The position numbers and the translations under genes are program-made. The notes under the pieces are model-generated. The model was not told the origin of the DNA and ran no database searches. It saw only the letters and a program-made list of their open reading frames with translations. From the NCBI GenBank assembly GCA_022564515.1, contig JADFLH010000018.1, positions 1-27,693 of the forward strand: 27,693 bases of DNA, read 5' to 3'. The DNA comes from Nitrososphaerota archaeon. Lineage in GTDB: Archaea; Thermoproteota; Nitrososphaeria; Nitrososphaerales; Nitrosopumilaceae. This document shows positions 23,374 to 27,693 of this stretch, piece by piece (within the stretch, counting starts at the first letter, position 1; each line of letters starts with the position of its first letter).

Positions 23374-23557
23374 TCAGAGTAACAATGTAAAAGTAATAAA
23401 TTAACATTTTTTATATGGATTTGTGAATTTTTTTTCAGAATTTTTGCTTTCTAAACGCAAATCAATTCAAGTGGCGATTTCAAGTCTGAAACGATAAGTG
23501 TTCTTATAATTTTCAGTTTACATCAAATGAAAAAATAAAGAAGAGCCGGTTTTATTT

Positions 23558-23842
23558 CTACAGTATTCTACTACTCGTTCCTCGATTTGTGACTATAATA
23601 CAGCCATTCGTTGAATAGATCTTAGGTCTTGATTTTGGATAATTTTCAACTTTTACGCAGGCTGTGCCTCTACATATCGTCACAGTCTCGTTTGCTGAAA
23701 CTCCTTTCATTTTTTCTTGTAGATACTCTCGATAAGGTTCCCCCGCCCAATTTGGGGAATGTACATCAATTCTTTGGACTGTAGTACCTCTTCCGCTTAC
23801 CAGACTTGCTCTCATAATCAATTCATAAAATGAATATGACAT
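23558..23842 (-). CDS. Hypothetical protein
   Basis: 94-aa ORF with no recognised motif. Confidence 0.45.
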   Translation of the reverse strand: MSYSFYELIMRASLVSGRGTTVQRIDVHSPNWAGEPYREYLQEKMKGVSANETVTICRGTACVKVENYPKSRPKIYSTNGCIIVTNRGTSSRIL

Positions 23843-24173: not shown

Positions 24174-24404
24174 ATGAGTAAGGGCGAAGAATTTCATTTT
24201 CCTCCAGAAATTGATGAAGAATATCAAAAATTTTGTTATGAATTATTCCTGAGAGATAAAAAGGGTGAAAAAATTGATTATGCAAAAGAATCAATGAATT
24301 TTTGGAACCAAAAAATAAAGGAAGCAGTTGATAGTGTAAAAACCTTAACTGATAATGTTGTAGATCAGTTAGAGCACGATAAACCTGGGAAAAAAGTATT
24401 CTAG
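24174..24404 (+). CDS. Hypothetical small acidic protein
   Basis: 76-aa ORF preceded by a 330-bp AT-rich spacer. It ends 27 nt before repeat copy 1. Confidence 0.45.
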   Translation: MSKGEEFHFPPEIDEEYQKFCYELFLRDKKGEKIDYAKESMNFWNQKIKEAVDSVKTLTDNVVDQLEHDKPGKKVF

Positions 24405-24431: not shown

Positions 24432-24747
24432 TTTAGTTTTATATTCATTGTCTGGGAATTTTAATTACATACAACCAAACTTAACTCGTTTTAAATAATT
24501 GATATTGTATCCCCCAGCAAATCATGTCTTACCTCTTTCAACCAGTAAAATTTTTGGGGGATACTCCGTATTTTCACAATAGAACATAAATCACTCTTGA
24601 TCCAGATGTATCTAAGATAAAGTGCTAATTAGTATAGACCGAAATAGCCCAGTTCGCAGAGGGATGGAATAAATGATGCCGCTCTTCTTACCCTTTTTTT
24701 GTTTTGATTAAATAACGATACTCTCTTTTAGGACTTTTTTTACATTT
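24432..24747. repeat. 316-bp direct repeat, copy 1 (identical to 25952-26267)
   Basis: Compared base by base with copy 2 at a constant offset of 1520 bp and found no mismatch. The flanks diverge immediately on both sides. No ORF longer than ~21 codons. Confidence 0.97.
24507..24564. other. GC-rich inverted repeat/hairpin inside repeat copy 1 (10-bp perfect stem GTATCCCCCA/TGGGGGATAC, 38-nt loop)
   Basis: 24507-24516 is the exact reverse complement of 24555-24564. This is G/C-rich in an AT-rich context. Confidence 0.8.
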
Positions 24748-25085
24748 CATAACAATTGTTTACAGTTTGCATCAAATGTAAATCAAGATTCTTTTTCTAG
24801 AGATGGGATGAGAATAAAGCCAGAATTGAGAGATGGGTAGTGCAAACATATAGGCTATGACTTTATTCTTCAAGGTAATCTGACGCGGCTTGGAATAAAA
24901 GTAGGCTGGAAAATTAGTTCAAAATTAGTTACCAAATTGGAAATTCAATTCATTAAATCTGTTATCAGTTCATATCAAACTAATCATGAAAATTCGTAAT
25001 TGATAAAGTAACTAAACAAAATTAGAGTAAAAGTTACAAAGTATCCAATTTAGGAACGCAAATAACAATTTAGTTATAGGTCATT

Positions 25086-25343
25086 ATGCAATGGGTTGAA
25101 GCACTCCTAAGAAAATCATGTGATAAAACATTAACGAAAGCAGAGGTTTTGCATAGTCTTTTCCACATGATAGAAGTAAACGAGAATACCTTAAACCACA
25201 TCCAAACGCATAAGAAAGACTTTGGACCTGAACTTGAAGAAATCACTCAAACGGAAATCCACGATTTAGACTTTCATCTAAAGTATTATCGTAGTCTTGT
25301 AAATTACATTAATTCAATGCCTGAAAACAAAATTGTTGAGTAA
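25086..25343 (+). CDS. Hypothetical helical protein (first gene of the repeat-bracketed cassette)
   Basis: 85-aa ORF, 49 nt upstream of and co-oriented with the NUMOD3-repeat gene. Confidence 0.45.
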   Translation: MQWVEALLRKSCDKTLTKAEVLHSLFHMIEVNENTLNHIQTHKKDFGPELEEITQTEIHDLDFHLKYYRSLVNYINSMPENKIVE

Positions 25344-25392
25344 ACTCCGTTTTCCTGAAAATTCTTAATTCTTAGTTTAATCCAGAAAATTC

Positions 25393-25893
25393 ATGAGTTC
25401 CAATGATGATGAAAATGCCACTCCCGAAAAATTAAAAGTACATCATGAAAAACCGATGAGGGCAAGACATCATTCAGAAGAAACTAGAAGAAAATTAAGT
25501 ATTGCACAAAAAGGAAAACGTCATTCAGAAGAAACTCTAAGAAAAATGTCCGAATCTCACAAGGGCCACACTCCATGGAACAAAGGAAGAAAGGGCGTCT
25601 ACTCAGAAGAAACCCTAAGAAAAATATCCGAATCTTTGAAAGCTAGAACTTTAACAAGAAAAATAAAGAAATTATCATTATCAGCTGGAAGAAAAACGTC
25701 GATATCTCACAAGGGCCACACTCCATGGAACAGAGGTAGGAAAGAAATAAGATCAAATGTTTTACACAAACAATCATTATCTCATTTAGGAAAAAACCCC
25801 ACTTTAGAAACTCTGAGAAAAATATCCGAATCTCTTGAAGAAATGAAGACATCCTTGAAAGAGTATGAGAAACAACTTAAATCGAAAAAGTAG
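25393..25893 (+). CDS. Protein made of tandem NUMOD3-like DNA-binding repeats, with no nuclease domain
   Basis: 166 aa. Repeated units are HSEETRRKLSIAQKGK, HSEETLRKMSESHKGHTPWNKGRKG, YSEETLRKISESLKAR, KTSISHKGHTPWNRGRK and TLETLRKISESLEE. They match the HSEETK-x-KIS-x-x-x-KG pattern of NUMOD3 modules of GIY-YIG/HNH homing endonucleases. A 29-bp perfect internal DNA repeat occurs at 25554-25582 and 25704-25732. Confidence 0.7.
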   Translation: MSSNDDENATPEKLKVHHEKPMRARHHSEETRRKLSIAQKGKRHSEETLRKMSESHKGHTPWNKGRKGVYSEETLRKISESLKARTLTRKIKKLSLSAGRKTSISHKGHTPWNRGRKEIRSNVLHKQSLSHLGKNPTLETLRKISESLEEMKTSLKEYEKQLKSKK

Positions 25894-25951: not shown

Positions 25952-26267
25952 TTTAGTTTTATATTCATTGTCTGGGAATTTTAATTACATACAACCAAAC
26001 TTAACTCGTTTTAAATAATTGATATTGTATCCCCCAGCAAATCATGTCTTACCTCTTTCAACCAGTAAAATTTTTGGGGGATACTCCGTATTTTCACAAT
26101 AGAACATAAATCACTCTTGATCCAGATGTATCTAAGATAAAGTGCTAATTAGTATAGACCGAAATAGCCCAGTTCGCAGAGGGATGGAATAAATGATGCC
26201 GCTCTTCTTACCCTTTTTTTGTTTTGATTAAATAACGATACTCTCTTTTAGGACTTTTTTTACATTT
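25952..26267. repeat. 316-bp direct repeat, copy 2 (identical to 24432-24747)
   Basis: See copy 1. It begins 58 nt after the stop of the NUMOD3-repeat gene. Confidence 0.97.
26027..26084. other. GC-rich hairpin inside repeat copy 2 (same as 24507-24564)
   Basis: Same sequence as the copy-1 hairpin, shifted by 1520 bp. Confidence 0.8.
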
Positions 26268-26549
26268 GACATCTTAAATATTGGAATGATATTCATTTTT
26301 TGCGTTGGAGTATTTGGAACAGAATTATAATTTTAAAAAATTTATAATGTTTTTAGCTTTAATTCCAACCTTCACATTATCTTTAACTGTTGATCATTTT
26401 GAGGACTCTCACGCTGAAGATTATTCCCTAGGAATATTTCAGTTAAAGCTAAACTACTACGAAGTCAGTCGCTGGTAGGAGATGTATTTTGGATCATTAT
26501 TGAAGAGGACAGAGGCACCATTGTAGTATCTTCCCAAAAAGGAATAATT

Positions 26550-26795
26550 GTGATTAGATTTGAATTTCAAGATCATGAGAAATGTTATGATAAACAAAAT
26601 ACTTTCTGTCTTAAAGCAGCTCTTACTGAGACTAAAAATACTTACTTTACTAAAGTTGGCGATGAGGCAACTATAATTCTTGAATATCCTAACAAGTTGA
26701 CTTTTTCAATTTTGAGTGGGGATCTAGTAACTAATACATTTGAACTTGAAATAGAAAAATTAAGAAAAATTAATATTCCAACAGATCAGAGCTGA
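26550..26795 (+). CDS. Hypothetical protein, possibly the 3' part of a frameshifted gene starting at 26347
   Basis: 81-aa ORF from GTG. The same frame stays open and protein-like upstream to 26418 without a start codon. A 43-codon ORF with a hydrophobic N-terminus (26347-26478) overlaps it in another frame. Confidence 0.35.
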   Translation: MIRFEFQDHEKCYDKQNTFCLKAALTETKNTYFTKVGDEATIILEYPNKLTFSILSGDLVTNTFELEIEKLRKINIPTDQS

Positions 26796-26826: not shown

Positions 26827-27693
26827 ATGAAAATCAGTCTATTTCTTGCATTAATTCCAATAATTCTATCAATTGGGATTATACCTGTTATACCATTTAC
26901 CAATGCTGAAGTTGAATTACAATGCATGAGTGGAGAGGTTACTGTAGTACGTACTACTAATCCCGACCCTATCTGTATTAACGAAATCACTGCTAATAGA
27001 TGGGTACAATTAGGAATTGCAGAAATTATTGGTGAACCCATGGAAGAAGAGATGATGGAAGAAACCATGGTAGAAGAGAAGATGGAAGTAACGGTAGAAG
27101 AAAAAATCGCAGTGGGAGTAGAAGTAATGAAAGACGCAATGGCAATGAAACTTCATGAATGGATTACAGCAACTGGAACAATAGACTCGATGCAAGACCA
27201 AGGAATGGGACATGAATCTCATCAGCTTGCAATCATCTTACCGCCAACGGATAAGATCTACAAAGGAATTCTATCCTATTCTGCATCAGAACCAATTCAA
27301 CTGATAGCACTACACGGTCCACTAGCCGAAGGTGAGGACAAAGGACAGCCAATATGGGCACCAGATGACAAAACAAAGTTTGCTTTGACATTTGTTGATA
27401 AGGAAACCTCAACGGGTTCTTGGCTTTTCACAGGTAATGCTCTTGCAGTACATACCAAGAATACAGAACAATTTACAGTAAGCTACTCTGTTAGCTACTT
27501 AGAAAAAGAAATGTCTGATACCGTTTCCACTGCAACAATGGAATCTGTACAAGACCCAGGAATAGGACATGAAGCACACTCTATAGTAATCATTCTTCCA
27601 CCAAGTGAAATGACATACAGTGGGATGTTGACCTATTCTGCATCAGAACCAATTCAACTGATAGCACTACACGGTCCACTAGCCGAAGGTGAG
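26827..27693 (+). CDS. Secreted repeat protein (3'-truncated by the window end) with a Met/Glu-rich linker and tandem ~119-aa GHExH-containing domains
   Basis: Open frame of 289 codons running off the window, so it is absent from the closed-ORF track. Signal peptide MKISLFLALIPIILSIGIIPVIPFTNA. Linker EPMEEEMMEETMVEEKMEV...MKDAMAMKLHEW. Two repeats containing QDQGMGHESHQLAIILPP / QDPGIGHEAHSIVIILPP and the identical SYSASEPIQLIALHGPLAEGE. Confidence 0.7.
   Translation, partial: MKISLFLALIPIILSIGIIPVIPFTNAEVELQCMSGEVTVVRTTNPDPICINEITANRWVQLGIAEIIGEPMEEEMMEETMVEEKMEVTVEEKIAVGVEVMKDAMAMKLHEWITATGTIDSMQDQGMGHESHQLAIILPPTDKIYKGILSYSASEPIQLIALHGPLAEGEDKGQPIWAPDDKTKFALTFVDKETSTGSWLFTGNALAVHTKNTEQFTVSYSVSYLEKEMSDTVSTATMESVQDPGIGHEAHSIVIILPPSEMTYSGMLTYSASEPIQLIALHGPLAEGE

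Follow-up and report, generated by a model that had tools for sequence, protein, structure and literature searches.

The window described here, a stretch of 27,693 nucleotides (nt; 27.7 kb) at positions 1 to 27,693 of contig JADFLH010000018.1 (assembly GCA_022564515.1), is part of the chromosome of an ammonia-oxidising archaeon of the family Nitrosopumilaceae. At 25393..25893 on the forward strand it contains an open reading frame (ORF) whose predicted product of 166 amino acids (aa) is an array of six NUMOD3-type units, the module by which homing endonucleases are tethered to DNA, and has no nuclease domain. Full-length orthologs at the same locus in further contigs, together with a significant excess of synonymous changes, mark it as a maintained gene. 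On comparative sequence grounds we think it rather probable that the DNA-binding module of a homing endonuclease was exapted in this lineage and acts as a DNA binder that does not cleave.

The 166-aa protein is basic (K+R 25%, D+E 12%) and matches the Pfam family NUMOD3 (PF07460) with E=2.8e-15 and 56.4 bits, the gathering cutoff being 20.4. The match comprises two independent stretches, the strongest of which covers residues 41-79, and with a score above the gathering threshold the protein falls within the NUMOD3 profile. Six units can be read in the translation. Three are canonical and follow the pattern (H/Y)SEETxRKxSxxxKG (HSEETRRKLSIAQKGKR, residues 27-43; HSEETLRKMSESHKG, residues 44-58; YSEETLRKISESLKA, residues 70-84), and three are degenerate (residues 94-108, 121-134 and 136-150). 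Units 2 and 4 are followed by an HTPWN(K/R)GRK extension (residues 59-66 and 109-116), which reads HTPWNKGRKG behind the former and HTPWNRGRK behind the latter. Along the gene, an acidic, non-repeat N-terminus of 26 residues (MSSNDDENATPEKLKVHHEKPMRARH; 25393..25470), mostly conserved in the orthologs and without a family match in Pfam or NCBIfam, precedes the canonical units 1 and 2 (residues 27-69; 25471..25599). The canonical unit 3 (residues 70-93) and the degenerate units 4 and 5 (residues 94-135) occupy 25600..25797, a region that includes the DNA repeat families D3 and D5 and holds most of the substitutions among orthologs. Unit 6 runs into a long C-terminal amphipathic helix (residues 138-165), encoded at 25798..25890.

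The original prediction, made from the letters of the sequence, had described a free-standing NUMOD3 array devoid of a nuclease domain, and this description is borne out. In Pfam, NCBIfam and PADLOC neither the 166-aa protein nor the product of the 85-aa ORF upstream of it has a match to GIY-YIG, HNH or LAGLIDADG domains. A GIY-YIG catalytic domain comprises some 90-100 aa at the N-terminus; here PF01541 is not matched, and the 26 residues that precede the first unit are far too short for any nuclease domain. The NCBIfam group I intron endonuclease model TIGR01453 reaches 11.8 bits, with a cutoff of 56. Likewise, PF01844, PF13392 and the other HNH families find no match in the 166 aa, and outside the repeats the protein lacks any His/Asn/His or Cys-pair motif. 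Homing-endonuclease families of PHROGs match the protein through their NUMOD3 regions alone, and what it has in common with GIY-YIG homing endonucleases is their C-terminal-type, modular DNA-binding domain containing NUMOD3. A tblastn search with 120 homologs, most of them with nuclease domains, gave nothing significant in the whole window outside the ORF. The 85-aa ORF is not a broken-off N-terminus, since in more than 80 genomes it stands alone and has a stop codon of its own. The suggestion that a longer nuclease gene had been disrupted in this genome only is likewise refuted, as all orthologs begin at the same start and no nuclease remnant flanks the gene. Based on sequence, we thus assign the 166-aa protein to the NUMOD3 domain family and to no homing-endonuclease family.

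The AlphaFold2 model of the protein, calculated from a 50-sequence alignment (mean predicted local distance difference test score, pLDDT, 78; predicted template modelling score, pTM, 0.31), consists of six helices (residues 29-40, 46-56, 72-91, 96-106, 121-132 and 138-165) that are joined by extended linkers and form no packed core. The helices are centred on the repeat cores, which is the short helix in an extended chain that defines the NUMOD3 family, and the N-terminal 26 residues are modelled as coil (pLDDT 60-68). The predicted beads-on-a-string shape is as expected of NUMOD3 modules. The C-terminal helix is modelled with a pLDDT of 92-96, and its sequence has hydrophobic residues in the 3-4 spacing of heptads (L140, I143, L147, M150, L154, Y157, L161), which are kept in the orthologs. 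This helix may serve dimerisation as a coiled coil; monomeric homing endonucleases, in contrast, have no such long amphipathic helix at the C-terminus.

In I-TevI and I-BmoI, which are GIY-YIG enzymes, and in the HNH enzyme I-HmuI, NUMOD3 has been described as a helix that binds the minor groove and tethers the protein to DNA (PMC3664794). An exhaustive phmmer search of 1.84 billion cluster representatives with the 166-aa protein returned 9604 proteins at E <=1e-3. Close matches were three, all of them fragments of orthologs, and nearly all other top matches are 190-560 aa long. The original prediction had asked whether homologs carry nuclease domains, and most of them do: among the best 120 word-indexed matches, 114 bear a non-repeat extension of at least 60 aa, which is GIY-YIG, HNH or Vsr-like where it can be identified, and two of the remaining six (P0083 and P0089) also contain nuclease motifs. 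The nearest full-length relatives combine GIY-YIG with NUMOD3 in 279-284 aa, are 42-45% identical and lie in phage or prophage DNA beside a tape-measure gene, an S24 repressor and an HNH gene. Matches on viral contigs comprise one GIY-YIG + NUMOD3 and one NUMOD3 + HNH protein, and the closest annotated phage matches are labelled 'Seg-like homing DNA endonuclease'. The combination of NUMOD3 with HNH was also seen in P0013, P0043 and an ORF of L008.

If compared to the GIY-YIG endonucleases I-TevI, I-BmoI and the T4-type Seg enzymes, the 166-aa protein shares the core SEET-x-RK-x-S-x-x-x-KG and linkers of the WNKG type. However, it lacks the GIY-YIG domain, neither a zinc finger nor a C-terminal helix-turn-helix was detected in it, it has six units instead of one to three (I-BmoI has three NUMOD3-type repeats; PMC3664794), and it ends in a long amphipathic helix. 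Its gene is vertically conserved in an archaeal chromosome, whereas theirs are intron-borne or free-standing in phages. HNH endonucleases of the I-HmuI type likewise use NUMOD3 helices as a DNA tether, but the 166-aa protein has no HNH motif. Proteins consisting of NUMOD3 repeats only are known as well. Plant ClNUM1, a nuclease-free NUMOD3 gene, has been studied by overexpression phenotypes only (PMC11201747), and P0076, P0367 and P0321 are of metagenomic origin. They resemble the archaeal protein in architecture, and P0367 (99 aa) also ends in a charged helix, but they are sporadic and not orthologous to it, being at most about 63% identical over the repeat cores only. In contrast to these proteins, the archaeal gene comes with comparative evidence of purifying selection.

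Contigs of the clade to which the window belongs were recovered by protein and DNA searches (L001 and L002, L094-L100 through a 25-nt motif of the flanking repeat, and L101). Full-length orthologs of the NUMOD3 gene, 86-100% identical, are present in eight further contigs of independent assemblies, among them L001, L094, L095, L096, L097, L100 and L101, the last of which holds an exact copy of the gene of the window. Seven of the eight encode 166 aa and one, with a stop codon three codons earlier, 163 aa; there are no indels, the start position is common to all, and every full-length ortholog lies 50-63 nt 3' of the 85-aa gene. The sequences form three lineages, for which we calculated pairwise Nei-Gojobori ratios of nonsynonymous to synonymous substitution rates (dN/dS) and tested them against neutrality with a binomial test. 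Between lineages dN/dS is 0.22-0.43 at a dS of 0.13-0.26, and the synonymous excess is significant, with p ranging from 0.012 to 1.3e-5; the 85-aa gene, for comparison, has a dN/dS of about 0.1. Units 1, 2 and 6 and the C-terminal helix are near-invariant, and substitutions cluster in the linkers and the degenerate units. Taken together, the orthologs do not show the hallmarks of a pseudogene, namely frameshifts or premature stops, variable length and a dN/dS of about 1. Given intact frames, the lack of indels and dN/dS values below 1, the sequence comparison argues for a maintained gene and not for a pseudogene, a decaying fragment or a recent arrival. The composition of the gene is host-like (GC content 0.349, GC content at third codon positions 0.275, with codon choice likewise), which fits a long residence; the window as a whole has ~32% GC.

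The distribution of the gene is narrow. Scanning the species genomes of GTDB directly with the 166-aa protein yielded no relatives, thus the genome of the window is not among the species representatives. None of 80 species-representative genomes of Nitrosopumilus and Nitrosarchaeum has the gene, which is present in one narrow clade, at a fixed locus. Being absent from those genomes, it is a rare, lineage-specific accessory gene. Two deviating copies were set aside. The 98-aa version in L002 was not taken as a sign of decay, as the contig is only 1.2 kb long and diverges in the middle of the gene. A second, 5'-truncated copy in L001 (P0001, 115 aa) was not accepted as a real duplication and is most likely a chimeric artefact of assembly or amplification; this 2801-bp contig (JGI 3300022690) has two inversion junctions and a fold-back end that involve the NUMOD3 gene. 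Upstream of the hairpin and the 85-aa gene of L002 (L002:15-326) we noted part of an ORF in which, by eye, a GAF domain seems to end and a GGDEF domain to begin. This is unexpected for a thaumarchaeon, and the contig may be chimeric.

Within the gene, a perfect 29-nt repeat at 25554..25582 (unit 2) and 25704..25732 (unit 4) is exactly as originally reported. The same holds for the three near-identical segments GAAAC(T/C)CT(A/G)AGAAAAAT(G/A)TCCGAATCT of repeat family D5, which lie at 25530, 25608 and 25806 and are 83-86% identical over 35 nt. The recent internal expansion that had been deduced from these repeats does not hold, since all orthologs have the six-unit layout, across lineages separated by a dS of 0.15-0.26, and the array must have existed before the three lineages diverged. 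Only in the window and the near-identical L095 do units 2 and 4 agree at 45/54 nt and share the perfect 29-nt run; the other lineages have 36-40/54 identical positions with runs of 8-13 nt, and their unit 4 reads LKGKTPWN instead of HKGHTPWN. Confined to the lineage of the window and L095, the 29-nt repeat is thus the product of a recent intragenic gene conversion.

The 85-aa gene (25086..25343, forward strand) always precedes the NUMOD3 gene in this clade. It has 987 homologs at >=79% identity, those with a name being assigned to Nitrosopumilus or Nitrosopumilaceae, and the scan of GTDB species genomes located it at 80 Nitrosopumilus and Nitrosarchaeum loci with 77-87% identity. By its sequence conservation it is a highly conserved core gene of the Nitrosopumilaceae and not a NUMOD3-specific partner. 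About 48 of its 85 positions are invariant over 27 sequences, including C12, H23, H27, H38 and H64, and the protein may bind a metal. Profile searches found no family match for it; its three-helix AlphaFold2 model (pLDDT 90) has no significant fold match in the PDB and so is silent on a link to nucleases. We compared 86 loci with an ortholog of this gene, including four metagenome or genome contigs and the 80 species-representative genomes. A gene for a 105-aa protein lies ~335-370 nt 5' of it at 81 of the 86 (e.g., L003:7312-7629 and L004:7349-7666), and a convergent 178-aa gene is present at 82 of the 86. Pfam GIY-YIG gives it a borderline match, with 21.8 and 25.2 bits and a cutoff of 22.6. 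The PADLOC defence-system models match none of the 166-, 85-, 76-, 94- and 105-aa proteins. Among the 86 loci no NUMOD3 gene was found outside the clade of the window. Vice versa, neither the window nor any clade contig has the 105-aa gene, and the window also lacks the 178-aa gene. Judged from these gene orders, the 85-aa gene lies outside its canonical genomic context in this clade. Whether nuclease-less arrays recur next to the 85-aa gene had been raised with the original prediction; they do, but in one narrow clade only. As an observation in its own right, it is curious that the neighbour of one and the same 85-aa gene is GIY-YIG-like in most genomes but a NUMOD3 array in this clade.

The gene pair is bracketed exactly by two non-coding copies of a 316-nt direct repeat, here called A, which the original prediction had not seen. 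The left copy (24432..24747) and the right copy (25952..26267), both on the forward strand, are 100% identical. Each contains a hairpin TCCCCCA-N38-TGGGGGA (24510-24561 and 26030-26081), which we also found in L001, L002, L094, L095, L096 and L098, with a different loop sequence in L002. It occurs at none of 80 other Nitrosopumilaceae loci and, being confined to the loci of this clade, was ruled out as a widespread repeated element. Repeat A was also rejected as an RNA gene: Rfam gave no match at gathering score and hits at chance level for E up to 5, and the folding z-scores are +0.8 to +0.9 on both strands. L001 has both copies of A, which are ~88% identical to those of the window and differ from each other. 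Since these copies have diverged, the A-B-A layout is older than the lineage of the window, and a recent homogenisation probably made the two copies of the window identical. Homology to the window stops ~13 nt (26094) beyond the 3' end of the hairpin in L094 and 1 nt (26082) beyond it in L096. Ends of homology between contigs repeatedly fall at the hairpin or just past it (24574/26094 and 26082), and the hairpin looks like a recombination breakpoint or site. In L097 and L100 only the last ~27-31 nt of A (CTCTTTCTTTTAGGAyTTTT..ACATTT) remain to the left and right of the module, and they end at the same right boundary, ACATTT. The genes around the module vary between contigs, and the two-gene module itself is constant and remains in the same neighbourhood, a few kb upstream of rpl3. 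This arrangement could stem from an old insertion of the cassette type, or the region may simply be prone to recombination. Neither a recombinase gene nor an empty or a second insertion site was found.

How could such a gene have come about? Most likely, a free-standing homing-endonuclease gene landed just 3' of the 85-aa gene of the host; free-standing endonucleases of the Seg type usually settle next to host genes that are, like this one, highly conserved. The newcomer would then have lost its nuclease domain, and the remaining DNA-binding array would have been kept by purifying selection as a DNA-binding protein that does not cleave. Given the part that NUMOD3 plays in the minor groove for I-TevI, I-BmoI and I-HmuI, the 166-aa protein is most likely a minor-groove binder as well. 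With six short helices and basic linkers it would, by analogy, most likely follow the minor groove over an extended site and not cut it. Plausible roles would be that of a local transcription regulator or of a protector that occupies a site. I-TevI, which is also a transcriptional autorepressor by virtue of its DNA-binding domain, would be a precedent for either. We infer DNA binding from the likeness to these enzymes, and in the same sense we infer the endonuclease origin, the regulatory or protective role and the dimerisation through the C-terminal helix. Several observations weigh against this account. The postulated origin rests on relatives that are ~40-50% identical, with much of the similarity coming from the repeat itself, and no ancestor-like full-length gene was found in any thaumarchaeal locus. 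Searches of the PDB with the 166-aa protein by sequence and by fold gave no match, in the case of the fold because the AlphaFold2 model is non-globular. Moreover, purifying selection as read from the sequences is only moderate, and the close pair L094 and L096 has a dN/dS of about 1.2 on 17 changes.

One might alternatively regard the gene as a functionless leftover of a degenerated homing endonuclease, caught late in the life cycle of such elements before disabling mutations have accrued. The nuclease domain that almost every relative has is gone, three units out of six are degenerate, a dN/dS of 0.2-0.4 is relaxed if compared with about 0.1 for the 85-aa gene, the ratio of the L094/L096 pair exceeds 1, and the gene sits in a recombination-prone, variable region. 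However, the frame is intact and of equal length in three lineages separated by a dS of 0.15-0.26, despite repeats that are prone to slippage, the synonymous excess reaches a p of 1.3e-5, and the start codon, the canonical units and the C-terminal helix are conserved. A decayed endonuclease remnant, one of three options originally offered, is therefore in conflict with the selection signal, and we hold a mere leftover to be rather unlikely. The domesticated DNA-binding protein fits best of the three, in view of full-length copies in eight further contigs, the lack of indels and a dN/dS of 0.22-0.43. For the third option, the recognition subunit of a split system, the locus gives no positive evidence, as no nuclease gene is found there. 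In such a system the array would direct a separate catalytic protein, e.g., a small GIY-YIG protein, in trans, perhaps with the 85-aa protein as adaptor. The sole hint is the borderline GIY-YIG-like 105-aa gene beside the 85-aa ortholog at 81 of 86 loci: an I-TevI-type enzyme is made of a GIY-YIG and a NUMOD3 half, and each of the two neighbours the 85-aa gene, in different genomes. Yet the 105-aa and the NUMOD3 gene never occur together, the former is missing from the window and every contig of the clade, no interaction domain was identified and no PADLOC model matches. GIY-YIG homing endonucleases, furthermore, act as single-chain monomers (PMC3664794). A nuclease split in this manner is thus quite improbable.

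The repeats around the module allow yet another view, in which direct repeats delimit a small cassette, mobile or excisable, that carries the 85-aa and NUMOD3 genes as cargo, and the NUMOD3 protein serves the cassette itself, for example through site recognition in recombination. The perfect 316-nt direct repeats bracket exactly these two genes, and in L097 and L100 imperfect direct repeats of ~29 nt, which share the right boundary ACATTT, flank the module. Homology between contigs stops at or just past the conserved hairpin in the repeat, and the 85-aa gene is found outside its canonical context. Loop-like short-read contigs of ~1.5-1.66 kb (L095 and L101) cover just this unit, but such contigs are expected of any A-B-A repeat in a de Bruijn graph, and the shared ~29 nt contain T-tracts and could be a reused terminator or promoter segment. 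Neither an integrase, a transposase nor a nuclease gene lies in the module or nearby, neither an empty nor a second insertion site was found, and every contig long enough to show the flanks has the module at the same chromosomal position. We therefore give a mobile cassette only a very small chance. Smaller still, in our estimate, is the chance that the array is the DNA-targeting half of a two-part system around the 85-aa protein, whose partner would be a mini GIY-YIG protein in most Nitrosopumilaceae and, in this clade, the NUMOD3 array within a repeat-bounded and possibly excisable cassette. If this were true, modules of homing endonucleases would have been dismantled and reused as separate subunits of a cellular DNA-transaction system of archaea.

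Returning to the exapted, non-cleaving DNA binder, a homing endonuclease that has reached fixation in a population is expected to decay, and to our knowledge there are few documented cases in which a host has kept one of its modules for a function of its own. In an uncultured marine or sediment lineage of ammonia-oxidising archaea, the DNA-binding array on its own appears to be retained in the chromosome under purifying selection. Should the 166-aa protein recognise a defined site, its six NUMOD3 helices in tandem would make it a natural, 'programmable-looking' reader of the minor groove. In that case it would also provide a handle on how NUMOD3 specifies sequence, which is relevant to I-TevI-based fusions for genome editing. 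The scope is modest, as the domain is known, nuclease-free NUMOD3 proteins are already in databases and the function is deduced from sequence.

Further features of the locus were noted. The 40 nt directly before the start codon of the NUMOD3 gene (25353..25392, forward strand; TCCTGAAAATTCTTAATTCTTAGTTTAATCC...; repeat family D16) align as an invariant block between the window, L001 and L002. They are possibly a promoter of the archaeal type with elements like the transcription factor B recognition element (BRE) and the TATA box; a similar motif is found at 24984-25001, 5' of the 85-aa gene. Between repeat A and the upstream region of the 85-aa gene, a segment of ~170-200 nt (24777-24945) is present in the window, L097 and L100 and absent from L001, L002, L094 and L096. 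A ~30-nt motif borders it on both sides in diverged copies (TTCATAACAATTGTTTACAGTTTGCATCAAA and TTCATTAAATCTGTTATCAGTTCATATCAAA), and a CAGTTyryATCAAA-like motif is also found at 23514 and 24035, 5' of other small genes. Directly upstream of repeat A, in the same lineage-specific variable region, lie a 94-aa ORF (23558-23842, reverse strand) and a 76-aa ORF (24174-24404, forward strand), which have no family and occur only in clade contigs, with 68-99% identity.

Elsewhere the window encodes a proteasome alpha subunit, a Snf7/CdvB homolog, a DUF371 protein and other archaeal housekeeping genes. Its taxonomic placement follows from this gene content and from the named matches of the 85-aa gene in Nitrosopumilus and Nitrosarchaeum. 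Downstream of the module, ORFs of 57 and 81 aa at 26305-26795 together correspond to a 149-aa gene, one half each, of which L097 and L100 have the intact form. They are separated by a frameshift near 26423-26425, where the window reads CCC and L097 CCCC, which is either a real pseudogene frameshift or a homopolymer sequencing error. The last ORF (26827-27693) continues past the end of the window and encodes a secreted-looking protein with a signal-peptide-like N-terminus. It contains a Glu/Met-rich tandem repeat of 24-27 nt (27042-27116) and a 165-nt direct repeat (27172-27336 and 27529-27693, 79% identical). Homologs of 313-322 aa are encoded in L097 and L100, and the gene is absent in L094 and L096.

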